A stretch of DNA of 64,000 nt, from the NCBI GenBank assembly GCA_900547955.1, contig URIR01000004.1:12680-76679 (forward strand). Reading direction: 5' to 3'. This stretch comes from an uncultured Eubacteriales bacterium. GTDB lineage: Bacteria > Bacillota > Clostridia > Christensenellales > QALW01. The notes under the pieces are model-generated. The model was given only the letters and a program-made list of their open reading frames with translations. It had not been told where the DNA came from and made no database searches. The position numbers were made by a program, and so were the translations under genes. How positions within the stretch are numbered: position 1 is the first letter of the stretch; each line of letters opens with the position of its first letter. Of this stretch, positions 3,420 through 56,096 are shown one piece after another.

Positions 3420-5258
3420 TTATTTAGCAATATTATTTAAAATATCCGCGGCCCTTAAAGCAATATCCTGAGCAGTTATATGGAACAGCCTTTGCTGCTG
3501 GCCTACCGTGGCATGCGGAACGACGCTGTCAGATAAATTCATCCCATAAACCGCTGTTTTTCCGCCCAATCCCTCCATATATCCGCTTACCCCCTCAAAC
3601 AGGCCGCCTGCGCATACATTATCCTCAATCACCAGCAAACAACTTTTTGCACTAAGTTCGGATAAAAGCCCGGCGTCTATAGGCTTTAAAAAGCATGCGT
3701 CAATCACGTCGGCGCGTATTCCCTGAGAAATTAGAATTTCATATGCCTTAACCGCCTGATGCAGCATGGCCCCAAAGGCAATAAGCGTAATTTCAGCGTC
3801 TGATTTATAAATATACTGCCATCTATACGGCTCAAGCGGCTGATTGACAGATATTTTAATATTGCAGCCCTTAGGGTAGCGAATCAATGAAGGAGAGCTG
3901 CTTTTAAGCGCCAGCTCCATCATATATTTTAATGTAGGAATATCTCTGGGCGCCATTATGGATAAATTAGGCATACCCCTTAAAAAGCCAAGGTCATATA
4001 TTCCTTGATGCGCTTCGCCGTCCTCTCCCGTAAGCCCAGCGCGATCCTCCAAAATAACTACCGGCAGCCCCTGCAGACATATATCGTGAAAAACCTGATC
4101 CAAACCTCTTTGCAAAAAAGTTGAATATATCGCCACAAACGGGCGCATCCCCCCTTTAGCAAGCCCCGCCGCAAGCGCCAGAGCATGCTGCTCGCATATA
4201 CCTACATCAAAAAAGCGAGAGGGATACAGCGCCGCAAAATGCCGCAGGCCGGTTCCCAAAGGCATACCGGCAGTAATAGCGCATACACCGTCATTTTCGC
4301 GGGCAGCGCGTATAAGCTCCTCTCCCATGGCAATAGAAAAGCTTTCCGCTCCTTCTATGCTCCCTTCGCTGGAGGAAACGCCGTGATATTTCTCAGGATT
4401 CTCCTCCGCCGGCGGATATCCCTTTCCCTTTTTAGTGGCAACATGGACTAAGACCGGTCCATCCTCCTGCTTTGTACGCTCCAAAATTTTTATCAATGCG
4501 GGTATGTCGTGACCGTTTATAGGACCTAAATATTTTATACCCAGGCGTTCAAAGAGGGTATCCCCCATAATCATATATCTAATTGAATTTTTTATTCGTT
4601 CCAGCAGCTTATAAAGCGGCTTGCCTACAAGAGGAATTTTATTCAGAACTCTGGTCAGTCCCCTTTTAAAATCCGCATATGGACGAGTAGTGCGCAGCAT
4701 GGTAAGATGCTCTGAAAGCGCTCCAACATTCTGCGCTATAGACATATCGTTCTGATTCAGAATTATTATAAGCCGACATTTTTTATAGCCTAAATCATTT
4801 ATAGCCTCTAAGGCCATGCCGCCGCCCAGCGCTCCGTCTCCGATAACCGCGATTACATTAAATTTTTCTCCCTTAAGGTCGCGCGCTCTGGCCAGACCAA
4901 GCGCCGTAGAAATGCTTGCTGAGCTATGACCGGTGGTAAAAATATCGTGAATACTTTCATCCTTATTGGAAAATCCGCTTAAGCCGTTTTGTATGCGTAT
5001 GCTCTTAAATTCCCGGGCGCGGCCCGTAAGCAATTTATGTATATAAGTTTGATGCCCTACGTCAAAAACTATTTTATCCTCAGGACTGTCAAAAACATAA
5101 TGCAAGGCTAAGGTAAGCTCTACAACGCCTAAATTTGACGCAAGATGCCCGCCGTTTTTAAGTATAACCTCTATAAGCTCGCCGCGTATCCGGGCGCTCA
5201 GCTCATATAGTTCAGAGGGCGCCATGCTCTTAAGCTTTTTAAGATCTATATCAATCAT
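3420..5258 (-). CDS. dxs: 1-deoxy-D-xylulose-5-phosphate synthase
   Basis: Full-length transketolase-like protein with the GDG(X)nN thiamine-diphosphate motif (VIGDGALGGGMALEAIND). Start trimmed to MIDIDLKKLKSM. The ATG overlaps the stop of the upstream membrane-protein gene. Confidence 0.95.
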   Translation of the reverse strand: MIDIDLKKLKSMAPSELYELSARIRGELIEVILKNGGHLASNLGVVELTLALHYVFDSPEDKIVFDVGHQTYIHKLLTGRAREFKSIRIQNGLSGFSNKDESIHDIFTTGHSSASISTALGLARARDLKGEKFNVIAVIGDGALGGGMALEAINDLGYKKCRLIIILNQNDMSIAQNVGALSEHLTMLRTTRPYADFKRGLTRVLNKIPLVGKPLYKLLERIKNSIRYMIMGDTLFERLGIKYLGPINGHDIPALIKILERTKQEDGPVLVHVATKKGKGYPPAEENPEKYHGVSSSEGSIEGAESFSIAMGEELIRAARENDGVCAITAGMPLGTGLRHFAALYPSRFFDVGICEQHALALAAGLAKGGMRPFVAIYSTFLQRGLDQVFHDICLQGLPVVILEDRAGLTGEDGEAHQGIYDLGFLRGMPNLSIMAPRDIPTLKYMMELALKSSSPSLIRYPKGCNIKISVNQPLEPYRWQYIYKSDAEITLIAFGAMLHQAVKAYEILISQGIRADVIDACFLKPIDAGLLSELSAKSCLLVIEDNVCAGGLFEGVSGYMEGLGGKTAVYGMNLSDSVVPHATVGQQQRLFHITAQDIALRAADILNNIAK

Positions 5259-5835
5259 TGGCCCTATCCCTCTTTTTAAATAGCGACAGAAAAACCCCCA
5301 CAAGTAAAAGTATATCCTTGCTTCTCTTAAGAGCGATAGTTTTCCCAAAGGCCTTGCCCCCTATTGTGAGACACGCTACTATCGCGCTGAAAAAAATAGT
5401 AAATATCATTTCCATTAAAGAGCTGGAAATATTTTTTGCAATTACAACGTTATAAATAATTGCAGAGGTCGCCGCTCCCGAAACTATGCCGCATATATCC
5501 CCGACTATATCATTGCATATGCTGCATACTTTATCGGTATTTTTTATCAGTCCCAGCACTTCTTTAGCGCCTCTCACCTTTCTGCTTGACATAGCGACAA
5601 AGGGCGCCTGTTCCGCCGAGGCCATAGCAGTACCAATCATATCAAAAATAATGCTAATAATTACCAGCAGCAGTACTATAAACGCCGAAATATAAACCGA
5701 AGCCGAGCGTACAATCAATTCGGAAAATAACGAAAAAGCTATTGTCATAAAAAATGAAATGAAGGTCGCCTTAACCGCCCAGTTTATGCCCGGCTTGGAT
5801 TTAGGGGATTTTTTATTGTCTAAGGTATTTTTCAA
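5251..5835 (-). CDS. oapA: Small polytopic membrane protein, candidate OLE-associated protein A
   Basis: 194 aa with about four hydrophobic helices. It lies between the large ncRNA and dxs, and its stop overlaps the dxs start (ATGATTGA). The assignment rests on position, size and topology only. Confidence 0.55.
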   Translation of the reverse strand: MKNTLDNKKSPKSKPGINWAVKATFISFFMTIAFSLFSELIVRSASVYISAFIVLLLVIISIIFDMIGTAMASAEQAPFVAMSSRKVRGAKEVLGLIKNTDKVCSICNDIVGDICGIVSGAATSAIIYNVVIAKNISSSLMEMIFTIFFSAIVACLTIGGKAFGKTIALKRSKDILLLVGVFLSLFKKRDRAND

Positions 5836-5949
5836 AACAACATCTCCAATATTAAATCATGCAAAAAACGCAGGGCTGACTCAAAAAAATTTATTAATAC
5901 TTAAAGCCTATAAAATATTAAACGGCCCAGCCGTAATGCGTTAAAAAGC

Positions 5950-6560
5950 ATGAAAATAATAAAAAGGTGGTAGCAAATCGGGTAAACCTTGCGGCTTAGG
6001 TCGAGCCAGATTTCCTTGCGTCCTGCCCCCCGTCGCCGAAGGGGCGGTTTCCCATTAAAGGACGTATTGCGCCGTTGCCCGAACGCAACGCTCGATAGCC
6101 ACTTAGACCACACTATAATCCCCGAAATGCCGTAAACAGTCTAGGAGATTTCCTCGGCAGCACGCCCAGCCTCTAGCCTCTTTTGCAGACAAGATTTCAA
6201 AAGGCCGTCATTACGTTAAAGCATGGCCATGCTTAAAACGAATGTTCCTTTATCCCTCAAAATCCACTCAAGGCAGGCTACGCTGTACACAGCAGCCAAT
6301 AACGGCACCGCATAGCAGGTTCATCCATATCCAGTAGCTTAAAAGCCACCGCAATATGTCTCCGCGGAGACTGGGTCAACGCCCGCATGCCATTGCGGAT
6401 CGCCCAACCTCCTTAACTCCCAGCACAAACCCCGGACTGGGCGTCCGAAGCCTGCACAAGAAACTTCATCGATATGCCCTTTGACGATTTTTTAATCCCG
6501 TCTTCAAGGCAGGACAAGCTGACTAGAATACTGCACCACCTTAATAACTAAAACTACATA
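5950..6560 (-). ncRNA. Large structured non-coding RNA, probable OLE-class RNA
   Basis: No credible ORF. The G+C-rich core is bounded by AT-rich DNA. An 8-bp closing helix pairs 5964-5971 with 6535-6542. Local hairpins lie at 6358-6371, 6214-6240, 6176-6205 and 6073-6090. A promoter sits upstream, and the oapA-like gene and dxs follow downstream. Confidence 0.6.
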
Positions 6561-6650
6561 TATAATCCCTTGCCTTTATTCAATCATACAACGCCGGCAT
6601 TTATTTTATCAGACTCAAATGACAGAAATAAAGCAAAATCTTATATTTGT

Positions 6651-6678
6651 ATTATATCATAAATTAATTAAAATGCAA
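6651..6678 (-). promoter_or_regulatory. Sigma-A type promoter upstream of the large ncRNA
   Basis: Minus strand reads TTGCAT (6678-6673), a 16-nt spacer, then the extended -10 TGATATAAT (-10 hexamer at 6656-6651). Confidence 0.5.
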
Positions 6679-6698
6679 ATTTAAAATAATTCATCCTA

Positions 6699-7292
6699 TT
6701 AATCCTGTCCGCAAACCGTTAACTCCCCCATCCGCTCAAGTAATTTTTCCCGTCCCTCACCGTTGACGGCAGAAACCGGATAAATGTCCGAGGAAATTAT
6801 ACCCGTTTCACGCGAAAGCTCTATTATCCGCTTTGCCTGCTGCGCTCTCGAGAGCTTATCCGCTTTAGTTGCAATGATACTAAATGGTTTCTGATAATAA
6901 TACAGCCAATCAAGCATCAATTTATCGTCCTGAGTAGGCGCATGCCTAATATCCAGCAGCAGAAACACATGCCTAAGCTGCTGGCTGCTATTAAGATAAA
7001 ACTCTATAAGCTCGCTGAAGCGCCTTTTTTCATTTTCTCCAATCTTTGCAAAGCCGTAGCCCGGCAAATCCATAAGACAAAACTTCTGATTTATAATAAA
7101 CGCATTAATAATCCTAGTCTTGCCTGGAGTTTTCCCTATCTTAGCAAGCTTAGAATTGCGGGTAAGCATATTTATCAGGCTGGATTTGCCGACATTGGAA
7201 CGTCCTGCAACCGCTATTTCAGGCAGGCCGCTAGGCTTATACTGAGCAGGCAGAGCAAATCCATAAGCATATTCAGCTCTTTTTATCTCCAT
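6699..7292 (-). CDS. engB: Ribosome biogenesis GTPase EngB/YsxC
   Basis: G1 motif GRSNVGKSSLIN and DLPGYG. It follows lon, as in Bacillus. Start trimmed to [11 protein letters not shown]. Confidence 0.9.
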   Translation of the reverse strand: MEIKRAEYAYGFALPAQYKPSGLPEIAVAGRSNVGKSSLINMLTRNSKLAKIGKTPGKTRIINAFIINQKFCLMDLPGYGFAKIGENEKRRFSELIEFYLNSSQQLRHVFLLLDIRHAPTQDDKLMLDWLYYYQKPFSIIATKADKLSRAQQAKRIIELSRETGIISSDIYPVSAVNGEGREKLLERMGELTVCGQD

Positions 7293-9636
7293 TATTGGCC
7301 GCCTTTCCGCTGCTCCGCTCCTTTTTAACGGGCATTTTAACAAGCGCATTTTTCAGCACCTGATTAATTTCGCTGACAGGAATAAATTCTATTTCTGAAC
7401 AAATCTCCTGCGGGATATCCGATATGTCTTCAACATTATCAGAAGGTATTATTATGCGCCTAATTTCCGCGCGGTAAGCTGCCAGCGCTTTTTCCTTCAG
7501 CCCGCCTATAGGCAGAACCTTTCCGCTGAGAGTTATTTCCCCAGTCATGGCCGTATCTGAACGCACAGGTATTCCGGATAAAACAGATACCATTGCAGAA
7601 AACATGCTTATGCCAGCCGAGGGTCCGTCCTTGGGCATAGCCCCTTCGGGAATATGAATGTGAATGTCCTTTTTCTTATGAAAATCCGGGCTTATTCCCC
7701 AATGCTCAGCATTTGCCCGTATTAATCCCATTCCCGTCATGGCCGATTCCTTCATGACCTCTCCTAAGTGTCCCGTAAGCACCAATTCGCCGCTGCCAGG
7801 CATGGCCGCCGCTTCAATATTAAGAGTCTCGCCTCCAACGCTGGTCCAGGCTAAACCGGTAACAATGCCTACTGAATCCTTCTTATTAGTTCCGCCCCTG
7901 TGTATCTTTTTATCGGTTAAATAATTTTCTAAATTCTCTTTGGTAACTGAAATAGTCTCCGCCTTATTCTTAACCACTTCTATAGCGGCTTTTCGACATA
8001 TTGCGCCTAACCGGCGTTCTAAATTTCTAACTCCAGCTTCCCGCGTGTAATCATCAATTATTTCCAAAATCGCCTCGTCGCTTACAGACAAACAGTCTTC
8101 CTTAAGACCGTGTTCCCTAATTTGCCTGGGCAAAAGATGCCTTTTCGCAATTTGAAGCTTCTCCTGGTCAGTATAGCCCGAAAGCTGTATAAGCTCCATA
8201 CGGTCCAAAAGCGGCCTGGGAATAGTATCGGAGGTATTCGCCGTAGTTATAAACATAACCTTGCTTAAATCATAGGGTACCTCAAGATAATGGTCGCTGA
8301 AAGCATTATTTTGCTCCGAATCCAGTACCTCCAGCATGGCCGAAGCCGGATCCCCCCTGAAATCGCTGGACATCTTATCAATTTCATCCAAAAGAAAAAG
8401 CGGATTGATAGTGCCCGCCTGGCGCATATGATAAATTATTTTACCAGGCAGAGCGCCCACATAGGTGCGTCTATGCCCGCGAATTTCAGCCTCGTCACGC
8501 ACTCCGCCCAGAGACATCCTTATAAAGCTCCGTCCCAGCGCCTTAGCTATGGACCGGGCAATAGAGGTTTTTCCTACGCCGGGAGGGCCTACAAGGCATA
8601 ATATTGGGCCATGCATACTGTTGGTAAGCGCATGCACCGCCAGAAATTCCAATATTCTCTCCTTCACCCTCTCCAGCCCGTAATGGTCGGCTTCTAAAAT
8701 TTTTGAAGCATAATCAAGATCCTGATTGTCTGTAGATTGATTCTGCCACGGCAATTCCAGCATCCATTCCAGATATGTGCGTATTAACGCTCCCTCAGGC
8801 ATGCCTGTCGGCATTCGCTTCATGCGTTCCAATTCCTTAAGGCATTTTTTCCTGGCGTTTTCGCTCATATCGCTCTGTTCAATACGCTGTAATAATTCCT
8901 CAGCCTCCTCAGTATCTCCCTCGCCCAGCTCCTTTTGTATGGCTTTAACCTGTTCCCGCAAATAATATTCCTTCTGAGACTGATCAATCTGGCGCTTAAC
9001 CCTTACCGAAATTTTCTTTTCCATTTCCATTATTTGGATTTCAGAAAGCAGAAATTCATACAGCCATTCCAAACGCTTGACTGGGTCAAAAATATCCAGT
9101 ATTTCTTGCCGCTGCTCTTCATTTTCCAAAATACTGGCAGTCATAAGGTCGGCAAAATAAGAAGGGTCGTTCACAGCTTTCAGCGACTGCAGTATATCAG
9201 GAGAAACCTTGCCCGATTCCTGAGCATATTCCTCAAAGACATTGGTTATAAGCCTCATAAGCGCAGAAGCCTGAACATGATCGTATACAAACTCATCAGG
9301 CGCTTCTTTAATAACTGCTTCAAACATATGCTCGTCTGTCGTAATAGCCTTTATTTCCGCTCTGTATAATCCCTCTGCCAGGATTCTTACCGTATCCCCA
9401 GGAATCCTTAAAACCTGTTTTATACGGCACACACATCCCACTTTAGCCAAATCATCCAGCATCGGATCCTCTATAGCCGCCTCTTTCTGACTTATCAAAA
9501 ATATCTGCTGGCTGGAAAGCATTGATTGCTCTATGGCGGCTTTGGATTTTGCCCGAGCTACGTCCACATGCATAGACATACTGGGAAATATGGCCATTCC
9601 TCTCATGGGAATCATAGGTAGTGTCAGCTCGCTCAT
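7273..9636 (-). CDS. lon: ATP-dependent Lon protease (LonA)
   Basis: LON N-domain, AAA+ Walker [10 protein letters not shown], and protease domain with PKDGPSAGI. Start trimmed to [13 protein letters not shown], which has a GGAG RBS. Confidence 0.96.
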
Positions 9637-9723
9637 ATATTCTCCATTTCCTCCGACTGCCTTGCAAGCCGCCGGTATAGTAATAATCAAAAAAATTCGG
9701 CTTCATATATAAGCCGCTAATAT

Positions 9724-9752
9724 ATTATATATTGTTTGCAGTTAAAAAGCAA
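9724..9752 (-). promoter_or_regulatory. Sigma-A type promoter for lon
   Basis: Minus strand reads TTGCTT (9752-9747), 17 nt, TATAAT (9729-9724). Confidence 0.45.
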
Positions 9753-9785
9753 ATATAATAAATATGAATGCGAATGATTTTTCCA

Positions 9786-9825
9786 ATGAAAAACTCAAGG
9801 GCGCGTATTATGTATACGCGCCCTT
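9786..9825 (-). terminator. Rho-independent terminator
   Basis: A 12-bp perfect stem AAGGGCGCGTAT / ATACGCGCCCTT (9797-9825) is followed on the minus strand by GAGTTTTTC. Confidence 0.8.
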
Positions 9826-9875
9826 TGTCAAATAAATATCAAAATCAGCTATATTTCTATAGGACGGATGTTTGG

Positions 9876-10158
9876 TTATTGTTTGGAATCACTATTATAC
9901 GCATAATTGTAAAAATATCCTATATTACCGTCCAATGTGCTGACTCCTCCGATTATTCCAATACTAAATTTATTTGAATGAATTTTAATGCTTTTTAAAT
10001 AGGTATCCTCAATATATTACTGATTGCCTGCATTGCAATGCATACGGACGAATATCATATTTTCCCGAATAGCCCGCGCCTTGCAGCTCTGAATAACTGA
10101 ACGTGCATAAATTAATCAACAACAACCCAACCAATGCAGTAACTATTGACTTTTTCAT
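9876..10158 (-). pseudogene. Possible frameshifted small secreted-protein gene
   Basis: ATG at 10158 opens MKKSIVTALVGLLLINLCTFSYSELQGAGYSGKYDIRPYALQCRQSVIY and stops at 10009. An adjacent frame continues IEDTYLKSIKIHSNKFSIGIIGGVSTLDGNIGYFYNYAYNSDSKQ to the stop at 9876 but has no start codon of its own. Confidence 0.25.
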
Positions 10159-10221
10159 AAGCTTACTTTCTTATTTACTAAAGCGGTACCCCATTTTGAA
10201 CTCCTTTCTCATTATTCCGCT

Positions 10222-10917
10222 TTAAGAACGTATGAATAGTGATACAGAGCCCTGCAAAGTATTATCCTTATATACGCCGCATGAAAAGCAAACAGTTTGA
10301 AAATCGAAATCTGCGCCATCCACCTTTTGGATAACATCATTGCTTATTAAATAACAATTCTCTCCTTCATCAGCCTGCTTATCCAGAACTATATTTATAT
10401 AATCTCCATCATAGCTTTTTAAAATATCCTCTGCCAAATAAAGCTTTGATATTAAATCCGCCCGACCGGCGCTTATGCCTGCGGCCGCTATATCCTCAGC
10501 ATTATATTTATCTGCCTCTATATAGAAGCCCTGAAGCTGAATTTCAGAACCGCTCTGTCCTAAAAACTCATATAATATATGCTTGTCTTTTTGCATATAT
10601 AATTTATAGGCTCGCATATACATATCTTTAATTATAAGTCCACGCTCGTTCAATACAATACCTATTTCAATTTCGTTGAATATCAGGTCGTTAAAAGCTT
10701 TATCCGTGCTTTTATCAAATTGCTTTAACTCTGTCTCAAAAAGTTTTAAAGAATTATTAACCGGAGAAAAATCTCGCCAGTTAGTCTCCCTGTTATACCA
10801 TGGCGCTTCGCGCAAAGCTACAACGTAATCTTTTTTTAGCAGGCTTGTAAAAATAATAACGGCTATTATAATAACTACAACTAAAATAGGAAAAACAATT
10901 AATAGTTTCTTTTTCAT
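10222..10917 (-). CDS. Hypothetical membrane-anchored protein
   Basis: 231 aa with N-terminal signal-anchor MKKKLLIVFPILVVVIIIAVIIF and a GGAGG RBS. I do not recognise a family. Confidence 0.6.
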   Translation of the reverse strand: MKKKLLIVFPILVVVIIIAVIIFTSLLKKDYVVALREAPWYNRETNWRDFSPVNNSLKLFETELKQFDKSTDKAFNDLIFNEIEIGIVLNERGLIIKDMYMRAYKLYMQKDKHILYEFLGQSGSEIQLQGFYIEADKYNAEDIAAAGISAGRADLISKLYLAEDILKSYDGDYINIVLDKQADEGENCYLISNDVIQKVDGADFDFQTVCFSCGVYKDNTLQGSVSLFIRS

Positions 10918-11000
10918 AATACTTCCTCCGCAATAAATATCAAATCTTCGACAATATAATATTAACTTACGCGCATCGCCTTGTCAATACTGCTTCAAAA

Positions 11001-11038
11001 GTTTTATAAAAAAGCAGCGGATATAGCGCCGCTGCTTT
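11001..11038 (-). terminator. Rho-independent terminator after clpX
   Basis: Stem AAAGCAGCGG / CCGCTGCTTT (11011-11038) is followed on the minus strand by TTTTATAAAA. Confidence 0.7.
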
Positions 11039-11055
11039 AAAAATAGCATTTTTTA

Positions 11056-16275: not shown

Positions 16276-17413
16276 TGCGCTTTAAAATATCCCAGAGCTT
16301 AGCGTCCTTATATTCGCGGTCGGCTACTAAATCAACGCGCATCATTTCTGCGCCGTCCTTCCTGATTATAATTTCGCCAACCTTTTGGCCCGCCTGAATA
16401 GGCGCGGATACCTCCGAGGGAAGAACTATCTCCTTTTCTATTAGCTTTTCCTCGCCCTTTCTGAGCACGGCCGTAACATTCCAGGCTGGATGCACGGACA
16501 TGGTCTTATCCATACCGTTTTTAACGGCCGGCTGCTGTTCTATAACGTCGTCTTTATTAACCAGCTTAACCGTAGTAAAATTAGCAAAGCCGTAATTAAG
16601 CAATGTGCGCGCATCATCAAAACGTTTCTGGCTGGTTTCTCCTCCTAATATTACACTTATCATACGCGTTCCGTTACGGGTAGCCGAAGCGCTCAGGCAA
16701 TGCTTGGCTTCATCTGTATAGCCTGTTTTTACCCCGTCGCAGCCCTCGTAAAAACGCACCAGCTTATTGGTGTTGGTCAGACCGGTGACCCTTCCGTCCT
16801 TATGCGTTATTTCATCCATCCAGGTGCTGCTCCATCTAAAATAGTCCTTATGCGTTAAAAGCTCCCTGGACATTATTGCTACGTCGCGCGCGGTTGAAAG
16901 ATGTCCTTCAGCCGGCAGACCGGTACAATTCACAAAAGTAGTATTATTCATTCCCAGCTCTTTTGCCTTTTGATTCATGCGGGAAACAAAAGTTTCCTCA
17001 TTTCCGGCAAGATGCTCGGCCATGGCTATACATGCGTCATTAGCCGACGCTATTATTATAGATTTAATGAGCTCGCTGGCAGGATACTGCCAATGGGCGT
17101 CAGTAAAAACATGAGAGCCGCCTATATTTGCAGCATATTCGCTTACCGTTACTTTATCATCCAATTTCAGCGTGCCCTGCTCCACCTCGTCAAAAATAAG
17201 ACACAGGCTCATTATTTTAGTAACGCTGGCAATAGGAAGGGGCTGATCTATGTTTTTTTCATAGAGTATGGTACCCGTTTCATATTCCATAAGCAGGCCC
17301 GCTCTGGCATTAATATCAAATTCGGGCTCGGCTTTTGTTACCGTAACTGAGCAGAGGCTTACGCTAAGAAAGATTATTGCGGCAGAAATTATTTTCAAAA
17401 AACTCTTAGACAT
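16259..17413 (-). CDS. D-alanyl-D-alanine carboxypeptidase (low-MW PBP, DacB/DacF type)
   Basis: Signal peptide, SxxK (ASVTKIMS), SxN (ASAND) and KTG (VKTGYT). The 3' end overlaps the rqcH 3' end convergently by 17 nt. Confidence 0.88.
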   Translation of the reverse strand: MSKSFLKIISAAIIFLSVSLCSVTVTKAEPEFDINARAGLLMEYETGTILYEKNIDQPLPIASVTKIMSLCLIFDEVEQGTLKLDDKVTVSEYAANIGGSHVFTDAHWQYPASELIKSIIIASANDACIAMAEHLAGNEETFVSRMNQKAKELGMNNTTFVNCTGLPAEGHLSTARDVAIMSRELLTHKDYFRWSSTWMDEITHKDGRVTGLTNTNKLVRFYEGCDGVKTGYTDEAKHCLSASATRNGTRMISVILGGETSQKRFDDARTLLNYGFANFTTVKLVNKDDVIEQQPAVKNGMDKTMSVHPAWNVTAVLRKGEEKLIEKEIVLPSEVSAPIQAGQKVGEIIIRKDGAEMMRVDLVADREYKDAKLWDILKRIISLW

Positions 17414-17471
17414 AAAAACCTCCTTGTTTTTTATTTAGGTTATGCAAACAAAAAGGTTTTATGCGCTATTT

Positions 17472-18281
17472 TTAAATATTTTCAATTATTTTGTCAATTA
17501 ACGAGGCAAAAGCTCCTTCAGTCCTTCTGCCCGTCTCCATCACCTCGGCATGTGAAAGCGGGGTTTCAAGTATACCGGCTGCCATATTTGTTATACAAGA
17601 TATGCCCAATACCCTTATGCCCGCCTGCACAGCGGCAACCGTCTCAAAAACAGTAGACATTCCCACCATGTCGCCGCCTAAAATGCGTATCGCCCGTATT
17701 TCCGCCGGCGTTTCGTAGCTGGGACCGGCGCAGTAATAATATACTCCCTGCTTAAGAGGTATTCCGGCCTGCCGGGCTGCTTCAAGAGCCAAAGCCCTCA
17801 GTTCCGCGTCATAGGCCTGGCTCATTGAAGGGAAGCGCTCCCCAAATTCCAGCGCCTTCATCCCTCTTAACGGATTAAGCCCTGTCAAATTTATATGGTC
17901 GGTTATGCATACTAAATCCCCCGGAGCAAAAGAAGTATTAACGGCGCCCGCAGCATTTGTAAGAATAAGCTTTTTTACTCCCAGCGCCTTAAGCACCCTC
18001 AAAGGGAAGACCGTCTCCTCCGGGCTTCTGCCTTCATAATAATGCACGCGTCCTTGCAGGCATATTATCTGCTTTCCCGCCTTATCTCCTATAACAAACG
18101 CGCCCTTATGCCCATCAACGGTAGAAACCGGCATACCAGGGACATCCTTATAATGTATAACCTCCGCATTAGCCAGCCCTTCAGCATAACTGCCCAGGCC
18201 CGAACCAAGCACAAGTCCGGCTTCCGCCATAATATCCAATTTATTTTTTATATATCCTGCAGCCTTTAATACTTCGTTCAT
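17472..18281 (-). CDS. punA: Purine nucleoside phosphorylase (PunA type)
   Basis: PNP/MTAP family sequence (GSGLG, GRVHYYEG, MSTVFE), adjacent to deoB. Confidence 0.9.
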   Translation of the reverse strand: MNEVLKAAGYIKNKLDIMAEAGLVLGSGLGSYAEGLANAEVIHYKDVPGMPVSTVDGHKGAFVIGDKAGKQIICLQGRVHYYEGRSPEETVFPLRVLKALGVKKLILTNAAGAVNTSFAPGDLVCITDHINLTGLNPLRGMKALEFGERFPSMSQAYDAELRALALEAARQAGIPLKQGVYYYCAGPSYETPAEIRAIRILGGDMVGMSTVFETVAAVQAGIRVLGISCITNMAAGILETPLSHAEVMETGRRTEGAFASLIDKIIENI

Positions 18282-18294
18282 TTTTCTTCCTCCG

Positions 18295-19431
18295 TTATAA
18301 AAATGCTTTGCCGCTTAAATCATAAGGCAGATTAAAATAATGCGCCAGCGAAGCCGCGACATCCGCGAAATCTCTTATATGCATATTTTCCCGCTTAATT
18401 TTATTACCGTAAAGCAAAATTGGCGTGTATTCTCTTGAATGGTCGGTGCTGGCCGTAACTGGATCGCAGCCATGGTCTCCCGTAATAATCAATATATCAT
18501 CTTCTCTCAATTTCGCCGTTATTTCGGGCAGCACGCAGTCAAATTTCTCTAGAGCGCGCGCATATCCATATACGTCGTTTCTATGTCCGTAAAGCGAATC
18601 AAAATCCACTAAATTAACAAACAGCAGTCCATTAAAGGGTTCCTCCAGCAATTCAAGAGTCCTATTGACGCAGGCGTCATTGCCCTTATCCGGATAGCTT
18701 TTAGTCAAACCGCAGCCGTCAAATATATCCCCTATTTTCCCTATTCCTATAGCATCAAGTCCGTTCTCACTAAAAATATTTAAAACTGTGCGGCCCGGAT
18801 TGATAGAAAAATCATGCCGATTTTTAGTGCGCACAAAATGACCCGGAGTACCAATAAACGGACGGGCAATAATTCTGCCTACAGCATATTTCCCCGACAT
18901 AATCCTGCGCGCCTCTCTGCACATTCGATATAATTCTTCTAGTGGTATTATTTTCTCGTGCGCTGCAATTTGGAGCACGCTGTCGGCGGAGGTATATACT
19001 ATGGGGAAGCCCGTGCTCATATGCTCCCTGCCCAGCTCTTCAATTATAACTGTTCCCGAAGCCGCCTTATTGCCCAATATTTTGCGGCCGAAAGCGTTTT
19101 CCAGCTTTGTCACAATTTCAGGCGGGAATTTTTTAAACGTAGGAAAAGGCTCTGCCAAAATTTTGCCCATAAGCTCCCAATGGCCTGTTGTAGTATCCTT
19201 TCCAGGAGAATGCTCGCATAATTTTCCATACGCAGCGCTAGGCACGGCAATCGGCCGAGCATAATCTATCCCGTCAATATTGAAAAGCCCCATTTCAGTT
19301 AAATTAGGCAGACGCGCCTGGCCTGAAAGCACCACGCTTTTTAATGTATTGCTGTTTTGGTCTCCAAAAGCAGCAGCATCCGGCAATTCCCCTACGCCCA
19401 GGCTGTCCAGCACTATCACAGCAGCTTTCAT
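18295..19431 (-). CDS. deoB: Phosphopentomutase
   Basis: Alkaline-phosphatase superfamily metal sites (VIVLDSLGVG, TGDHGCDP). Confidence 0.92.
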   Translation of the reverse strand: MKAAVIVLDSLGVGELPDAAAFGDQNSNTLKSVVLSGQARLPNLTEMGLFNIDGIDYARPIAVPSAAYGKLCEHSPGKDTTTGHWELMGKILAEPFPTFKKFPPEIVTKLENAFGRKILGNKAASGTVIIEELGREHMSTGFPIVYTSADSVLQIAAHEKIIPLEELYRMCREARRIMSGKYAVGRIIARPFIGTPGHFVRTKNRHDFSINPGRTVLNIFSENGLDAIGIGKIGDIFDGCGLTKSYPDKGNDACVNRTLELLEEPFNGLLFVNLVDFDSLYGHRNDVYGYARALEKFDCVLPEITAKLREDDILIITGDHGCDPVTASTDHSREYTPILLYGNKIKRENMHIRDFADVAASLAHYFNLPYDLSGKAFL

Positions 19432-19510
19432 TAAAACATTCCCTCCGACGCTTTATAAAAAAGCATTAACATAATCTTTTTAAAGACAAATAAACTTTTA
19501 AAATATTATA

Positions 19511-20149
19511 TCATAAAACGCCGCTGAATAAACTATAAATTCCGTTCATGACCAAAGGCATTATAAGCGCAACATATATGCTGGCTGGAATCGTTCCCAC
19601 GACCGAACATATAAAAAACTGCAGATATCCCAGGTCCTCTCTTCCTATTCCTTTTTTACCTTTTAATAATCTTCGCTTTTTCAATCGGATAAAAGCAAGC
19701 ACAGTACAGAAAAAATATATAGGCAGCAAAAGCAGATACTGCGGCAACAGCGCCAAAAGCAATATAAAAAAACCATCCAATCCCAGCAGGCTCAAAAGCA
19801 TGGATGCCGAAAAGCCCAGAACAAATCCTCGTCCGCCTAAAATAAGATAAGTAAACGGATATGTAAAGGTAAACAGGCCCAAAAGCATTATAAAAAATAC
19901 CGTTTCGGCAGAGCTGAGAAACGAGGTGAAAAATATGCCCCAGCGGTCTGCGCTGCCGTTAGCAATATATTCCAAATAGGATTCCATATACCGGCCAAAG
20001 CTGTCTCCAAAATAATCCCCAACATATTTATAATAAAAGCAGCCGCTGCTAATTCCTATAAGAAAAGAAACCAGCGCAATTATATAGCCCATTAAATTCT
20101 CTCTTATATGCTGAACAACGTTTTGTTTTATATACCCCAGTTTCACCAT
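19511..20149 (-). CDS. spoIIM: Stage II sporulation protein M
   Basis: 212-aa polytopic protein in the position conserved beside deoB/punA in spore formers. The family call is by resemblance. Confidence 0.65.
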   Translation of the reverse strand: MVKLGYIKQNVVQHIRENLMGYIIALVSFLIGISSGCFYYKYVGDYFGDSFGRYMESYLEYIANGSADRWGIFFTSFLSSAETVFFIMLLGLFTFTYPFTYLILGGRGFVLGFSASMLLSLLGLDGFFILLLALLPQYLLLLPIYFFCTVLAFIRLKKRRLLKGKKGIGREDLGYLQFFICSVVGTIPASIYVALIMPLVMNGIYSLFSGVL

Positions 20150-20739
20150 ATTTCACCCCCTCTAGATATTATTTTATTGAGAGGGACTAGTTAGCATTCT
20201 TAATAAATAAAAAAGTGCTGAAATAGGGTGCAAAGCAAAGTCGAGCACAACTAAAATAAGTAATGAAACTTTACTTCAAAAATCAATAAAGAATAACTGT
20301 GTTAAGCGCAGATTATTGATAGCACGGTATTAAAACCCCAAAGAATAAGTGACTGTTGGAATTAAGATAAAATATATTTTCCCCGCATGACAATAGCGCC
20401 ATACGAAAACCGTTACTCATATTTTCTATCAAAAGAGCGCCAATACGGCCATTTTGAATTTTCGGGAGTATCGTAAAATATTCGCGCAGCATGCAAACAT
20501 TAAAATCCAACTATATATAATATTAAAATAATAGAAACATAATTCGATTATTAATATTTCAAATAGAAAAATACTCGTTTTGCGCGCTGTTTCATCAATT
20601 TTAAAATTATTTATTTATTCAATTGCGCTAAATTGATAAAAAATTTTAAATATAATACTACTGCAGGACCTGAAACGTCAAAAAACAACATTTTCATTTC
20701 CTGAATGACAAAATATACCTACCGTTTGAGAACTGCAGC

Positions 20740-21468
20740 TTATTCTTCGAAGGTATTGCTTATATAATCACAAATAAAGCCGATAAATTCACTATTTGTA
20801 GGCTTTCCCTTATCCGAACGAATGCTGAATCCAAATAAAGAATTTATATACTCCAAATCCCCGCATATCCATGCTGTTTCTATGCTGTTTCGTATATTGC
20901 GTTCAATACAATTTGGACGGTTTCCGTATTTATCTGCAAGCTGCTGGTATATTTTACCCATATTATTATAGTATGGATATGCGTTGCCGTTTCTAACCAA
21001 CAACAGTATAAGATCTAATAGATAATTAAAGCCAAGTAGATTAGGCCTCATACCAATTTTCTTTAAAGTATCTCCTATGTATTTAGCCAGCTTATTCTCC
21101 CGCTCCTTTGAAATTCCCTCTATATTTATTCCACCGCCGGCATATGAAGAAATAAAATCAAAAAGCTGACTGCGCTCCTCATCTTTTTTAAAAACTCTTA
21201 CCGCCCCTAGAGCCACAGCAATCCTTGCCAAAAAATCATTTGTCAATTCAGAATATATAATGAATTTTGTATTCTCCTGGCCCTCCAATTCTTTTAATAG
21301 ACCAATTCCGTCTAAATCCTTTAGAATATAATCGGTAATCACTATATCCGGCATAATGTCCTGAACAGCCTGAACCAGTTCTCTGCCCGATTGATACACT
21401 CCTTTTATGACTAATTGTCCGTCGAAAGCAATTTCATGTTCACTTGTAGTACCTAGTAGTATTTTCAT
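20740..21468 (-). CDS. spo0A: Sporulation master regulator Spo0A (atypical receiver domain)
   Basis: The C-terminal Spo0A_C signature is present (ERNIRNSIETAW, INSLFGFSIRSDKGKPTNSEFIGF). It lies directly downstream of spoIVB and has a strong AGGAGG RBS. The N-terminus lacks the DD pair. Confidence 0.8.
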   Translation of the reverse strand: MKILLGTTSEHEIAFDGQLVIKGVYQSGRELVQAVQDIMPDIVITDYILKDLDGIGLLKELEGQENTKFIIYSELTNDFLARIAVALGAVRVFKKDEERSQLFDFISSYAGGGINIEGISKERENKLAKYIGDTLKKIGMRPNLLGFNYLLDLILLLVRNGNAYPYYNNMGKIYQQLADKYGNRPNCIERNIRNSIETAWICGDLEYINSLFGFSIRSDKGKPTNSEFIGFICDYISNTFEE

Positions 21469-21513
21469 ATGATTTCCTCCTTTATTAATTATATTCCTCT
21501 ACCTAGTAAAGAT

Positions 21514-21542
21514 ATTATATTAAAGATTAACATATTTTGCAA
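21514..21542 (-). promoter_or_regulatory. Sigma-A type promoter upstream of spo0A
   Basis: TTGCAA (21542-21537), 17 nt, TATAAT (21519-21514) on the minus strand. Confidence 0.5.
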
Positions 21543-21719
21543 GGGAAATTTATACAAAATAGAATATAGTTAATTATTTTGTTTAGTTTAGTTATTGATG
21601 ACTATTTCATATACAATTAATCAAAAAAAACATCATATTATACATAATATCGACATATATCGCTATTACCCACAGTTTACAAGGAACCACACGCCTCAAA
21701 ACAAGATAATTTCTTCATT

Positions 21720-21931
21720 TTCTGCGTTATCCTCAATCAACGTACTCCCCATTTCAAGGATAACAACGCAGAAAAGCCAATACTTTTCCTCTCTGCGGTC
21801 GGAGATTTTTGCTTAAGAACCCGTTGATGGCCGCACGGCGCGCGATTGAAGCCATACCAGGCATATTTTAGGACCGCGCAACAAAGCGGACCCGGCTGGT
21901 CATTGAGCAAAAACGCTTTGTACTTTGATGG
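21720..21931 (+). repeat. Intergenic repeat family, copy A
   Basis: Shares the exact 13-mer cgttatcctcaat with copy B, gct[t/g]a[a/g]gaacc with B and D, and a roughly 70-nt block with inverted copy G. It starts with a 12-bp bulged hairpin at 21721-21773. Confidence 0.6.
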
Positions 21932-22016
21932 TATTGTCTACACAATACCATGATTAATTATAAAAACGAAGGAAGATATCTGCTTTGCAATTATCTCCCT
22001 TCAGATTTCTTTTTTA

Positions 22017-23333
22017 TTAATCATGCATCCAATCTATATATAAGGCATAGCCTTTTTGCGGGTCGCTTATTAATACATGTGTAACGGCGCCTATCAATTT
22101 ACCGTTCTGCAATATGGGGCTTCCGCTCATGCCCTGAACTATACCTCCAGTTTTTTCAAGCAGGCGTTGGTCCGTAACCTCAATTATCATGCTTTTAGCA
22201 GCTTTTACATCCTGGTCGTTAGCCTTTATTATATTTATCTCGTATTCCTGTATTCCCTGTCCGTCTATAGTGGTTAAAATAGTAGCTTTGCCTTCCTTTA
22301 CGCTATTCCGCGAAGCCATTTCTACACCATTAGGATAGAGCTTATTAATAATATCTGAATAAGTATCCCCATAAAGGCCAAATTCCGTGTTGGCCAAAAT
22401 GCTGCCATATGCAGGGGAATTCAATCGGAAGCTGCCCTTAAGCTCGCCCGGGATACCCTTTCTTCCCTTGACTATATCATTAATGGTGCATTCCACAATT
22501 TCACCCGTTCCAACCGGCAGAATTGTACCTGTATCCGGGTCGGTTATGGCATGACCCAAAGCCGCGTACTTCTTATTTTGATTATCCGCGTAGGTAATTG
22601 TACCAATTCCAGCGGTACTGTCTCTAAGCCACAAACCCAGCCTGTACTTTTTCTCATATACGTCGTAAGCGGGAGTGATATTTATATCTACGTTCTTATT
22701 ATTTCTTAAAACCGTCAAAGTTATCGGCCGATTCTTGCTTTCTTCCACCAGCTGCCCAAGCTGACGTGCATTTTGTAATTGATGCCCGTTCGCTTTTACT
22801 ATAATATCGCCGTCAAAAAGTCCGGCCTGTAATGCGGGATTCACCTTTTTTCCACCTTCGCAGGATATATCAGAATTGCCGGCGACTATTACACCGTTTG
22901 TATATAAGGAAACCCCTATGCACATTCCTCCCGGCGTAACGGTTTTTTGAGGAAGAATATATACCTCTATATTTTTGATTTCCATTCCCAGAAAAGAAAC
23001 GGGAATATTACCTCTGATTATCTCGTTTTCTCCTTCACCCAAATGTCTGAATAACTGAGAATTATTTGCAATATCTGCGTTTGCGCTTAAAACAAGGCTG
23101 TTTTTATCCTCGCACAGACTAAATGGAAAGGAGCATTCCAGCCCCACCTGCTCGTTTTCATAAATCACCACCCTGTCCGGAAGCTCAAACAGCTCAACAA
23201 GGGGTGCGCTTCTTAATATAGTAAGAAGCAGCCCGGCGCTAGCCAGAGCTAATATTTTATTTTTAAATTTCAATCTTTTCAACTCCAAATCATTTAAAAT
23301 TCCGTTTCTATATCTTTTGTAAATGCAATGCAA
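22017..23333 (-). CDS. spoIVB: SpoIVB signalling serine peptidase (S55)
   Basis: PDZ region plus S55 catalytic region (YAALGHAITD, GMSGSPILQNGKLIGAVTHV). Canonical position between recN and spo0A. Confidence 0.88.
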   Translation of the reverse strand: MHCIYKRYRNGILNDLELKRLKFKNKILALASAGLLLTILRSAPLVELFELPDRVVIYENEQVGLECSFPFSLCEDKNSLVLSANADIANNSQLFRHLGEGENEIIRGNIPVSFLGMEIKNIEVYILPQKTVTPGGMCIGVSLYTNGVIVAGNSDISCEGGKKVNPALQAGLFDGDIIVKANGHQLQNARQLGQLVEESKNRPITLTVLRNNKNVDINITPAYDVYEKKYRLGLWLRDSTAGIGTITYADNQNKKYAALGHAITDPDTGTILPVGTGEIVECTINDIVKGRKGIPGELKGSFRLNSPAYGSILANTEFGLYGDTYSDIINKLYPNGVEMASRNSVKEGKATILTTIDGQGIQEYEINIIKANDQDVKAAKSMIIEVTDQRLLEKTGGIVQGMSGSPILQNGKLIGAVTHVLISDPQKGYALYIDWMHD

Positions 23334-23344
23334 ATATGCTTGTT

Positions 23345-23378
23345 AAAAAAATAAAGCTTCGACAAAAAATGCCGAAGC
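23345..23378 (-). terminator. Rho-independent terminator after recN
   Basis: Stem GCTTCG / CGAAGC (23356-23378) is followed on the minus strand by TTTATTTTTTT. Confidence 0.65.
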
Positions 23379-23417
23379 CTGTTAAAAACAGATATTTCTT
23401 ATCCAGAGCCTGTTAAT

Positions 23418-25100
23418 TTATGTAATTTTTAATTTTTGCTTAAATTTTTCGCACTCCTCCAGCATTTCCTTTCCATGCCCGCGTGCAAGAGCGGTTTCTC
23501 CGCCGCCTGTCAGCCTTGCTATTTCGCCTATTCTGCCCTCTTCGTTAAGCAAAGAAAGGCGTGTGACGGTGCTGTCCGATGTGGATATTTTCTCAATAAA
23601 ATAGTGGCTGTCAGCCATTGCCGCAATAACGGCCAGATGAGTAACGCATAACACCTGATGTGAAAGAGCTATACCCGCCATTTTCTCAGCCGTCACTTTG
23701 GCCATTCGTCCGCTTATACCCGTATCTATTTCATCAAAAACCATAGTGGGAATCATGTCCCTATCAGCAAAAATACTTTTAATCGCAAGCATAAGCCGGC
23801 TTAATTCACCGCCTGAAATTATCTTGGTAAGCGGCTTAAGAGGCTGTCCCGGATTAGCTGAAAACATAAATTCAGCCGTGTCTGCGCCGTCAAAAGAAGG
23901 CTGCTTAGCCTTCATATCTATCTGAAACAGGGCTTTATCCATGCCCAGCTCAGCCAATTCTCCCTTAATTTTTTCAGCAAGCATAACAGCGGTTTCTCTG
24001 CGTACAGCGGTAAGTTTAGCGCACGCCTCATTCAATTCAACCTGTCTCTGTTCTAATTCCTTCTTTAAATTCTCTATAGTCTGACCCGCATTTAGCAGCT
24101 CATCCAGCTCGATTTCCGCCTTGTGCATATAATTTATGGCTTTTTCCTCAGAATCACCGTATTTGCGCAGAATATCCGAGATAAGCTCCATCCTGCTTTC
24201 AACCTGCTTTAATCTGCGCGGGTCATTTTCCGAAGCGTCAAGCTGTTCAGATAATTCGCTGTCTATATCTTCCAATTCATAGTAGGCGGATTCCATCCTT
24301 CGCGTTAAATCGGCAAAATCCTCCGTATAGCGTTCAAGAGAGTTCAGCGAGCTTATTCCCGAGCGAATAGAATCCAGCGCGGCGCCCTCTTCCCTCAATG
24401 CCTGACATGCTTCAGCCAATCCCTGAGCTATCTGCTCTATATTAAGCAGCCTGGCGCGCTCGGCGCTCAACTCATCAAATTCTCCGGGCTCCAGCTCGGC
24501 CATCTGAATCTCATCTATTTGATATTTTAATAAATCGATATTCCTGGCCCGTTCCTCATCCGTACCCCAATCGGCATGCAGTCTGCTCTGTACGCCTTTA
24601 TAGGCTTCATACGTCTGTGCAACCAGGCTTTTAGCGTTTAACGCTTTTTCTCCCGCATAAGCGTCTAAAAAGCTCAAATGATTTTCACTCTTTAAAAGCG
24701 CCTGATGCTCATGCTGCCCATGAATATCAACCAGCCAGGCAGAAACATCGCGCAGCATAGAAAGGGTGACAATACGACCGTTAATACGGCAGGTGCTTCT
24801 GCCGTCGCTTGAAAGCTCCCGAGACAGGATAAGGCATTCATCCTCACAATCAAAGCCCAGATTTATCAGCTCGGCTTCACGCCCGAGCGGTATATCAAAG
24901 CTGCCCTCAACATACCCTTTATTCTGCCCTATGCGAACTAATTCCTTATCCCCTCTGGCGCCGAAAAGCAAATTGAGCGAATCTACCAATATAGATTTAC
25001 CTGCTCCAGTTTCACCAGTAATTACATTCAGTCCATCGCCAAATTCCACGCTTATATTATCCATAAGCGCTATATTCTTAATATTAAGGCTACGCAGCAT
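23418..25100 (-). CDS. recN: DNA repair protein RecN
   Basis: SMC-like protein with Walker A GETGAGKS, a long coiled coil and the C-terminal signature LSGGELSR. Confidence 0.96.
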   Translation of the reverse strand: MLRSLNIKNIALMDNISVEFGDGLNVITGETGAGKSILVDSLNLLFGARGDKELVRIGQNKGYVEGSFDIPLGREAELINLGFDCEDECLILSRELSSDGRSTCRINGRIVTLSMLRDVSAWLVDIHGQHEHQALLKSENHLSFLDAYAGEKALNAKSLVAQTYEAYKGVQSRLHADWGTDEERARNIDLLKYQIDEIQMAELEPGEFDELSAERARLLNIEQIAQGLAEACQALREEGAALDSIRSGISSLNSLERYTEDFADLTRRMESAYYELEDIDSELSEQLDASENDPRRLKQVESRMELISDILRKYGDSEEKAINYMHKAEIELDELLNAGQTIENLKKELEQRQVELNEACAKLTAVRRETAVMLAEKIKGELAELGMDKALFQIDMKAKQPSFDGADTAEFMFSANPGQPLKPLTKIISGGELSRLMLAIKSIFADRDMIPTMVFDEIDTGISGRMAKVTAEKMAGIALSHQVLCVTHLAVIAAMADSHYFIEKISTSDSTVTRLSLLNEEGRIGEIARLTGGGETALARGHGKEMLEECEKFKQKLKIT

Positions 25101-25110
25101 ACAATCCTTC

Positions 25111-25569
25111 CTAATTCATAAGCTTTTTAAACTGATTCATTACGCCTTTAACCGACTGATTATCAGCCGCAACTACAAGCAGAGTATCATCTCCGGCAAC
25201 ACAGCCCAGCACTCTATCGTTATTCATGGAATCTACCACTACAGCCACAGTATTAGCGCTTCCCTGTATAGTCTTTATAACTATTAAATTATTGGCCGAC
25301 TGTATGGAAAGCACGGCTCCGGCAAATAATTTATGAAACCGTTCCTCCTGTTCGCTTTTATTCTTATGCTCGGTAGAATATTTATAACCGCCCTTTTTAG
25401 AAGGTACTTTTATAAGCTTAAGCTCTTTAATATCCCGGGAAACCGTGGCTTGAGTAACCTCAAAGCCGCTGCGGCGAAGCTCTCCGGCCAGCTCGTCCTG
25501 CGTTTCCAATTCCTTAGCTTCTATAAGCTCGAGTATTTTTGCATGTCTCTTGGATTTCATATGTTCCAC
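25111..25569 (-). CDS. argR: Arginine repressor ArgR/AhrC
   Basis: Winged-helix N-terminus (QATVSRDIKEL) and a C-terminal oligomerisation domain (GDDT). Confidence 0.92.
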   Translation of the reverse strand: MEHMKSKRHAKILELIEAKELETQDELAGELRRSGFEVTQATVSRDIKELKLIKVPSKKGGYKYSTEHKNKSEQEERFHKLFAGAVLSIQSANNLIVIKTIQGSANTVAVVVDSMNNDRVLGCVAGDDTLLVVAADNQSVKGVMNQFKKLMN

Positions 25570-25575
25570 TCTTTC

Positions 25576-26430
25576 TTATTTTTTATCCTCGCCCGAAATA
25601 CTCCATTCGTTCAGCTTTGAATGAAGCAGCTTATAGAAATTCCTGTTTTTCACAGTTAGGAATTTTGCGTTAAACGGCGCTCTGGTAACGGTTATCTCCG
25701 CATGATTCTCGTTAAGCTTCTGCTCCATTCCGTCGTATATTATAGACACGTCAGCTTCAGCCGCAACTCTAATCTTAATTATTTCGTGGTCGGGAAAAAC
25801 TATAGGCCTAGCTCTTAAAGTATGCGCGCATACGGGAGTCATCAGCATAGCAGAAAGAGACGGCGAAAGCACCGGTCCGCCTGCTGAAAGAGAATACGCC
25901 GTCGAACCGGTAGGACTTGCTATTATAAGTCCATCGGCATAAAAGCTGTCCGCCATAATATCTCCGGCGAATACATCCAAACGAATTATTCTCTCATATA
26001 CCGCTCTATGTACAGAAATTTCATTAAGCGCATAAAACTTTTTTCCATGCACCTGGCATTCCAGCATCATCCGCTCGTCGATTTTATATTGGCCGGCAGC
26101 TATAATATCCAGAGCGTTATTAAGCTCAGATATCTCAATTTCCGAAAGGAAGCCAAGCCTTCCCATATTTATTCCCATAACCGGCTTACCCTTTATAGAA
26201 GCCTCGGCGATTACCCCCAGCATTGTACCGTCTCCGCCCAATACAAATACGGCGCTGCTTCGGCTGAAAAAAGTAGAACGGCTAATTACCGGGCGGCCTA
26301 ATTTTTCTGCTACATCGCCAAAAAGCACCGGTTCTATGCCCTTCTCCTCCAAAAGCTTTATTAATAATTTAGTAACTTCCAGCGTTATATCTTTATTAAG
26401 ATTAACAATTATACCTATACATTTGAGCAT
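25576..26430 (-). CDS. nadK: NAD kinase
   Basis: GGDGT motif (VLGGDGTMLG) and the NAD-kinase C-terminal fold. Confidence 0.92.
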   Translation of the reverse strand: MLKCIGIIVNLNKDITLEVTKLLIKLLEEKGIEPVLFGDVAEKLGRPVISRSTFFSRSSAVFVLGGDGTMLGVIAEASIKGKPVMGINMGRLGFLSEIEISELNNALDIIAAGQYKIDERMMLECQVHGKKFYALNEISVHRAVYERIIRLDVFAGDIMADSFYADGLIIASPTGSTAYSLSAGGPVLSPSLSAMLMTPVCAHTLRARPIVFPDHEIIKIRVAAEADVSIIYDGMEQKLNENHAEITVTRAPFNAKFLTVKNRNFYKLLHSKLNEWSISGEDKK

Positions 26431-27137: not shown

Positions 27138-27153
27138 AGAAATAATAGTAAAA

Positions 27154-55996: not shown

Positions 55997-56096
55997 ATTT
56001 CTCAATGACAGCGAGAACGCTTAACACAAAATGGCTTATGCCCTTTTTTCAGGCAAAAGCCGGCAGAATAAAAAAGCAGGAAGGGAAGAACGCATT

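Follow-up and report, generated by a model that had tools for sequence, protein, structure and literature searches.

OLE RNAs form a family of which over 2,800 representatives have been catalogued in Bacillota (PMC11332333). The RNA is abundant and very stable, has its own promoter, and helps cells to withstand ethanol and cold (PMC3413148). It assembles into a homodimer (PMC12286853), is anchored to the membrane by the protein OapA and may itself span the membrane (PMC12265935), and binds OapC at a k-turn (PMC9723947) and OapB at hairpin P13, for which both a GNRA loop and a bulge are required (PMC7936274). Loss of the OLE particle leads to Mg2+ sensitivity, and OapA resembles the MpfA family of Mg2+ transporters (PMC11332333); it is weakly related to CNNM domains, has four transmembrane (TM) helices, and carries a DxxxD motif that is lacking in true CNNM domains (PMC11332333). 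Stem P1 lies at the 5' terminus of OLE. In Halalkalibacterium (Bacillus) halodurans, the 5' ends of the RNA map to the start of P1, and OLE precursors that arise by read-through are trimmed to this stem (PMC3413148).

The gap between engB and oapA in the window (the whole stretch of 64,000 nucleotides analysed here) holds an ordinary full-length copy of this catalogued RNA and as such represents known biology. An earlier note on this DNA had proposed an OLE/OapA locus from architecture alone and had named the Rfam OLE model as a check. In a cmscan search of the whole window with Rfam 15, that model (RF01071) matched over positions 1 to 616 of 616 with a score of 482.5 bits, far above the gathering threshold of 50 (E value of 1.6e-138), and the protein encoded downstream has the hallmarks of OapA, both of which bear the proposal out. 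The only other match in the scan was to an unrelated T-box at 55.7 kb. All of the sequence strings quoted in the earlier note were recovered where it had placed them when the minus strand of 5100-7400 was read. The gap from the engB stop (6699) to the oapA start (5835) is 863 nt, as had been counted, and the G+C contrast that had been described is present, with a G+C fraction of 0.506 in the RNA (5951-6555) compared with 0.442 in the window as a whole; the spacers upstream and downstream of the RNA have fractions of 0.238 and 0.322, respectively. We regard it as very nearly certain that the locus is an ole-oapA-dxs operon, with family membership, fold, synteny, and promoter conservation computed here and function assigned by homology. 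The features discussed below are as follows; helix names are limited to P1, P13, and P14.1, since papers do not number the helices alike.

6651-6678, minus strand: predicted sigma-70-type promoter from the promoter scan, with -35 TTGCAT (6678-6673), a 17-nt spacer, and extended -10 TGaTATAAT (6659-6651)
6543-6643, minus strand: AT-rich 5' leader from the predicted start to P1, not conserved
6555-5951, minus strand: OLE RNA gene (RF01071), full length, cmscan match to the whole model
6542-5964, minus strand: OLE core closed by P1, 579 nt
6542-6535, minus strand: P1 5' strand AAGGUGGU, pairing with 5971-5964
6067-6088, minus strand: P13-type hairpin with a GCAA (GNRA) loop (6078-6075) and a bulged U, from the Rfam alignment, its main stem 86% paired in relatives
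6025-6045, minus strand: hairpin with a GCGA tetraloop (6036-6033), from the Rfam alignment, 89.4% paired in relatives
5971-5964, minus strand: P1 3' strand ACCACCUU, pairing with 6542-6535 and followed by a U-rich tail
5836-5963, minus strand: OLE-oapA spacer, with a weak terminator-like hairpin at 5934-5922 and the oapA ribosome-binding site GGAG at 5846-5843
5251-5835, minus strand: oapA, whose 194-aa product has four hydrophobic segments and DxxxD (D109, D113)
3420-5261, minus strand: dxs (1-deoxy-D-xylulose-5-phosphate synthase), TIGR00204, 665.8 bits

Conservation of the fold was assessed in an alignment (A2) of 71 full-length OLE copies and the window RNA (n = 72). The loci were collected via OapA homologues, and OLE was located upstream of them by nhmmer using the window RNA as the query. 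The structure projected onto this alignment consisted of the Rfam consensus and the P1 helix as it occurs in the window, 160 pairs altogether. Across the 72 RNAs the projected structure was 86.8% paired, compared with 41-45% when the partners were slid by 1 to 3 columns, and 134 of the 160 pairs had changes on both sides. The long-range helix that had been predicted to enclose 579 nt (AAGGTGGT/ACCACCTT) is the published P1 stem, which is not annotated in the consensus structure printed by cmscan for the Rfam OLE model. The earlier note had suggested examining the spacer of relatives for covariation, and P1 covaries in the 72 OLE RNAs along with the consensus fold: 89.6% of its cells were paired versus 29-69% in slid controls, compensatory cells numbered 138 versus 51.5 in shuffles, and both-sided changes were present in six of its eight pairs. 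Typical variants are GAGUGGU/GCCACUC, GGGAUGGU/ACCAUCCC, and UAACGGU/ACCGUUA. The tail that follows P1, ACCACC-UUUUUUAUU, is conserved in the two sister lineages L088 and L087 (OapA 92% and 88% identical to that of the window, respectively) and is U-rich in the Rfam consensus. As a separate observation, the OLE RNAs of Oscillibacter and other Oscillospiraceae metagenome-assembled genomes (MAGs) (e.g., L074, L079, L061, and L046) carry an extra G+C-rich hairpin of ~20-25 nt (GGAAGCGCG...CGCGCUUGC, A2 columns 146-168) directly after the first long hairpin, which is absent from the window and from other lineages.

The four local hairpins that had been listed inside this helix fared unevenly. The one at 6214-6240 is an apical hairpin bearing a conserved UGGCCA loop; it was 42-68% paired in either register, in a length-variable tip where the MAFFT alignment is unreliable. 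Those at 6176-6205 and 6073-6090 conflict with the conserved fold and were rejected. The former strings together 3' strands that belong to three nested helices of the consensus and was 59.8% paired in relatives, with two of its pairs forming in only 13/72 and 1/72 sequences, and the latter is in the wrong register, being 52.9% paired, whereas the main stem of P13 in the consensus register reached 86%. The palindrome at 6358-6371 extends over one helix's 3' strand and the conserved CCGYGGAG junction as far as the first base of the helix that comes next; it contains only one covarying pair and may represent an alternative pairing. The repeated 10-mer CCTGCCTTGA was found in both places reported, and we treat it as a chance occurrence rather than a functional repeat, since by our own estimate a 600-nt sequence would be expected to contain ~0.17 repeats of this kind. 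Only the second copy (6277-6268) sits in an invariant OLE block (GUAGCCUGCCUUGAG), and the first is not preserved even in the sister lineages nearest to the window (OapA 88-92% identical), where L087 has AGTGCTTTGA and L088 has TTTGCCTTGA.

By analogy with characterized OLE RNAs, the P13-type hairpin would be the expected docking site of OapB. It contains the GCAA loop and the bulged U and has one extra G relative to the consensus, giving either a pentaloop or a G-G mismatch; the extra G is shared with L088, and L087 has a clean GUAA loop. Because of this G, docking of OapB in the window is likely but not assured. The hairpin at 6025-6045 would correspond to the published secondary OapB site, P14.1 (PMC7936274).

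The 194-aa protein encoded downstream, which had been described as having about four TM helices, is OapA. Its hydrophobic segments span residues ~24-42, 49-67, 114-132, and 140-158, and both aspartates of the motif D109-I-V-G-D113 are invariant in 21 homologues. It matches PF01595 (CNNM) just above threshold (31.4 bits, with a cut-off of 28.4) and no other Pfam domain, and no NCBIfam model matched it. The gene starts 128 nt after P1 on the same strand. The next gene is certainly dxs, and the overlap that had been pointed out between the oapA stop and the dxs ATG amounts to 8 nt (ATGATTGA), with the same gene calls on public contigs.

Homologues of OapA numbered 2,342 at an E value of ≤1e-5. 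A profile of 21 homologues recovered at least 80 loci in Bacillota reference genomes (GTDB scan; 34-45% identity), the loci listed being distant relatives that do not include the species of the window, and close relatives were obtained by exact-protein look-ups; two of the latter, L092 and L093, are too short to hold OLE. Among the loci listed, nhmmer with the window RNA located OLE upstream of the homologue on the same strand in 78 of 80, usually directly adjacent, and dxs follows oapA in most. A few loci have OLE at 0.5-6 kb from oapA, and some OLE matches are cut by contig ends. Two loci of Anaerofustis stercorihominis (L023 and L028) have clear OapA homologues and gave no OLE match by nhmmer, and in L068 and L074 OLE does not adjoin oapA and is found 2.5-5.8 kb upstream. 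These four could represent divergent OLE variants or rearranged loci.

The near-consensus promoter that had been reported upstream of the RNA is the top site in our scan (10/12 plus the TG of an extended -10) and is conserved in the sister lineages. When the engB-oapA spacer of the window was compared with those of L088 and L087, the TTGCAT-N17-TGATATAAT block was ~90% identical in L088 and L087 retained the -10, with divergence in the spacer around it. Such a conserved footprint amid a diverged spacer supports a real promoter at 6678-6651, as inferred from sequence, with a predicted start near 6643. Only the last ~20 nt before P1 could be aligned among the window, L087, and L088, the ~100-nt stretch between promoter and P1 being otherwise unalignable; the 5' leader is presumably trimmed or dispensable. 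A -10-like hexamer ends ≤35 nt from P1 in 68 of 72 OLE loci, many of them having a perfect TATAAT with TG, a count that is inflated by AT-rich flanks and is descriptive only. The nearest consensus -10 in the window lies 110 nt from P1, which places the promoter unusually far away, its predicted start being ~100 nt upstream of P1, and only weak TATGAT and TAAAAT sites were found just upstream of the stem. L087 additionally has a proximal TGGTATAAT. A short block directly 5' of P1, ATATA...TTAGTTATTA (6543-6565, minus strand), is kept in the window, L087, and L088 although the rest of the leader is not; this block might mark where the RNA is processed or be what is left of a proximal promoter. 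If precursors are handled as they are in B. halodurans, the mature 5' end would probably arise by trimming to P1.

At the other end of the RNA, the hairpin at 5934-5922 was considered as a terminator and rejected: 4 such sites were found versus 3.1 expected, it is absent from L087 and L088, and the spacer folds only weakly (z score of -2.07). With no convincing conserved terminator after OLE, read-through from ole into oapA-dxs is likely. Cotranscription of this kind, and the position of the RNA upstream of oapA-dxs on the same strand, would also fit a cis-acting 5' leader (a riboswitch or an attenuator) that controls oapA-dxs, as opposed to a stable RNA acting in trans. We consider such a leader very improbable, however. 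The sequence is that of a full-length OLE member, and OLE of H. halodurans is a discrete, very stable, abundant, and membrane-localised RNA (PMC3413148, PMC12265935); a structure of 579 nt with ~17 helices goes far beyond any known leader, and OLE and oapA are kilobases apart in a few genomes (L068 and L074).

A second alternative, to which we give still slightly less credence, accepts the RNA as OLE and holds that it is a decaying relic which no longer functions in this lineage. Seven of the 159 consensus pairs are deleted in the cmscan alignment, so that one small hairpin is missing and a second lacks its tip; 14 of the 152 retained pairs are noncanonical, P13 has its extra G, and the module has been relocated and its promoter displaced. 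Against this, the score is very high, the other 138 retained pairs (91%) are canonical, the deleted elements fall in regions of A2 where the OLE family varies, the differences that separate L087 and L088 from the window lie mostly in variable stems, and oapA is intact with every invariant residue present. Six independent contigs, one of them from a MAG and the others from metagenome assemblies, carry the locus in near-identical form and encode an identical OapA protein, which indicates purifying selection on the locus, and the exact window OapA sequence is present on at least 92 metagenome or MAG contigs. The window RNA reads as a compact full-length form of OLE.

That the gap instead encodes a 70-aa protein with incidental RNA structure is the least probable reading of all: a 70-codon ORF does exist and public gene callers have called ORFs within OLE elsewhere, but this ORF (5901-6113, the only one in the gap, which had already been judged to hold no credible one) begins with GTG, lacks a ribosome-binding site and a Pfam match, and has the Arg/Gly/Pro-rich composition typical of G+C-rich RNA read in frame, and conservation tracks base pairing, not codons. 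Translation of OLE by gene callers was seen in several places: besides the minus-strand ORF in the window, L087 has a called gene of 88 aa (9534-9800), and the OapA homologue P0029 bears a false N-terminal extension (residues 1-47, ...GKPLPRRREAARREIRLDLSRKVY...) that translates the conserved 3' portion of OLE. These cases are a reminder that gene callers produce spurious ORFs from OLE and false N-terminal extensions of OapA.

The order of genes on the minus strand is trigger factor, clpP, clpX, one to three unannotated genes, lon, engB, OLE, oapA, dxs, spoIIGA, and sigE. The context had been described as rearranged, with lon-engB and not ispA preceding OLE, and engB is indeed the upstream neighbour in this lineage alone among the loci listed: of 77 scorable loci, 32 have an IspA-like polyprenyl synthase, the commonest neighbour, and 3 have engB, all of them from this lineage. 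The separation of ~20 kb that had been given between dxs and the nadK-argR-recN-spoIVB-spo0A block also holds, the block lying at 20.7-26.4 kb. In the window, the region at 17400-26430 (minus strand) contains nadK, argR, recN, spoIVB, spo0A, spoIIM, and phosphopentomutase-like and PNP-like genes and is without ole-oapA-dxs. Relatives whose OapA is 49-50% identical have the order oapA-dxs-nadK-argR-recN. In L089 and L091 the nadK-containing block directly follows oapA-dxs, and in L091 recN is followed by spoIVB, spo0A, one unannotated gene, and then phosphopentomutase-like and PNP-like genes.

The simplest reading of these arrangements is that ole, oapA, and dxs apparently moved together as one unit. 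It is possible, as a tentative reconstruction to which we give rather less than even weight, that the three genes were excised from an ancestral site and re-inserted behind lon-engB, with the promoter ~100 nt from P1 acquired or kept in the move; by analogy with the Bacilli order ispA-ole-oapA-dxs-nadK-argR-recN, the ancestral site would probably have been upstream of nadK-argR-recN-spoIVB-spo0A. If this reconstruction is true, selection maintains a physical and translational coupling of dxs to the OLE particle, which would argue that the particle is genuinely linked in function to isoprenoid or membrane-lipid synthesis, beyond an inherited gene order. The apparent movement of the trio as one block adds a little weight to the view that dxs and the OLE particle belong together in function.

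The window contains many sporulation genes (spo0A, spoIVB, spoIIGA, sigE, spoIIM, and spoIIP), which places the host in Bacillota, in line with the OLE family. A member of the ClpX cluster (at least 90% identity) bears the label Christensenellaceae, a tentative indication of placement below the phylum. Several other observations were made in these surroundings. In the clpX-lon interval (~9700-11050 in the window and 4800-6000 in L001-L006), strains of the same species differ in their gene calls, with proteins of 147, 179, 197, 206, or 380 aa, none of which has a Pfam match, and in L002 (6198-8562) lon is split into 443 and 354 aa; the interval differences represent either a variable spot or assembly or frameshift noise. 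Upstream of nadK (26535-27966, minus strand), two overlapping ORFs of 223 and 270 aa with no Pfam match at 1e-5 occupy the place of the tlyA/rrmJ-type genes of Bacillus OLE loci. The T-box leader (55717-55970, plus strand) scored 93.9 bits, barely above its threshold of 93, and lies upstream of ORFs 56031-57287 and 57244-58038, which encode a PALP-family enzyme (probably trpB) and trpA; a UGG triplet located by eye near the expected specifier place fits a Trp T-box.

By analogy with Halalkalibacterium halodurans and Clostridium acetobutylicum, the OLE RNA of the window would be transcribed from a promoter of its own, with part of the transcription continuing into oapA-dxs, and would accumulate as a stable, homodimeric RNA of ~580-600 nt. 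Dimers of OapA would be expected to bind it and to hold it at or through the cell membrane. The RNA, together with OapA, OapB, OapC, and bS21, may then form a ribonucleoprotein that aids the cell against alcohol, cold, excess Mg2+, and poor carbon sources, as known OLE particles suggest. The most likely route would be that OapA, with a membrane domain resembling that of CNNM/MpfA transporters, controls the transport of divalent cations. The best-supported model, drawn from these homologous systems, is that the locus specifies a membrane ribonucleoprotein which tunes OapA-dependent cation handling and stress responses.

As for what this copy contributes, standard Rfam-based annotation would label it automatically as OLE, and the kind of evidence that it brings is not new; its value is modest and comparative. 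It offers an example of a promoter placed at some distance upstream of P1, an arrangement that would imply 5' processing. Among other large, highly structured noncoding RNAs, GOLLD, ROOL, and the raiA motif are unrelated to OLE in sequence and fold, and the Rfam scan gave no match to them anywhere in the window. The membrane domain of the window OapA weakly matches PF01595, the domain of the MpfA/CorB/CorC Mg2+ transporters, as has been reported for OapA generally; OapA differs from these CNNM transporters in being without CBS or CorC domains, in having four rather than three TM helices, and in the presence of DxxxD (PMC11332333). The OLE variants 1 and 2 of the TANB77 and RF39 gut lineages (PMC11332333) are, like the window, from uncultured Clostridia known from metagenomes or MAGs, and likewise have some apical stems shortened. 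However, judged by the Rfam alignment, the window RNA spans the model from end to end, retains in P13 the GNRA loop (GCAA, with the extra G) that is often missing from variant 1, and retains the central helices missing from variant 2.

The OLE RNA of C. acetobutylicum (577 nt; PMC12286853) resembles the window RNA in its compact length (579 nt in the window), its clostridial host, and its family; its cryo-EM structure is that of a homodimer. The OLE RNA of H. halodurans C-125 belongs to the same Rfam family and has the same P1-closed fold, its own promoter, oapA immediately downstream and then dxs, and an OapA with DxxxD and four TM helices; the GNRA loop and bulge of its P13 have counterparts in the GCAA and bulged U of the window. 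In that organism, ole is located between ispA and oapA-dxs-...-nadK-argR-recN, and the start site adjoins P1 (PMC3413148). In contrast, the window copy stands behind lon-engB, has its conserved promoter ~100 nt upstream of P1 and one extra G in P13, and is missing a small consensus hairpin (model positions 424-435). Only the relocated three-gene module and the distal promoter are points specific to this lineage; otherwise, the RNA is a routine member of the OLE family.
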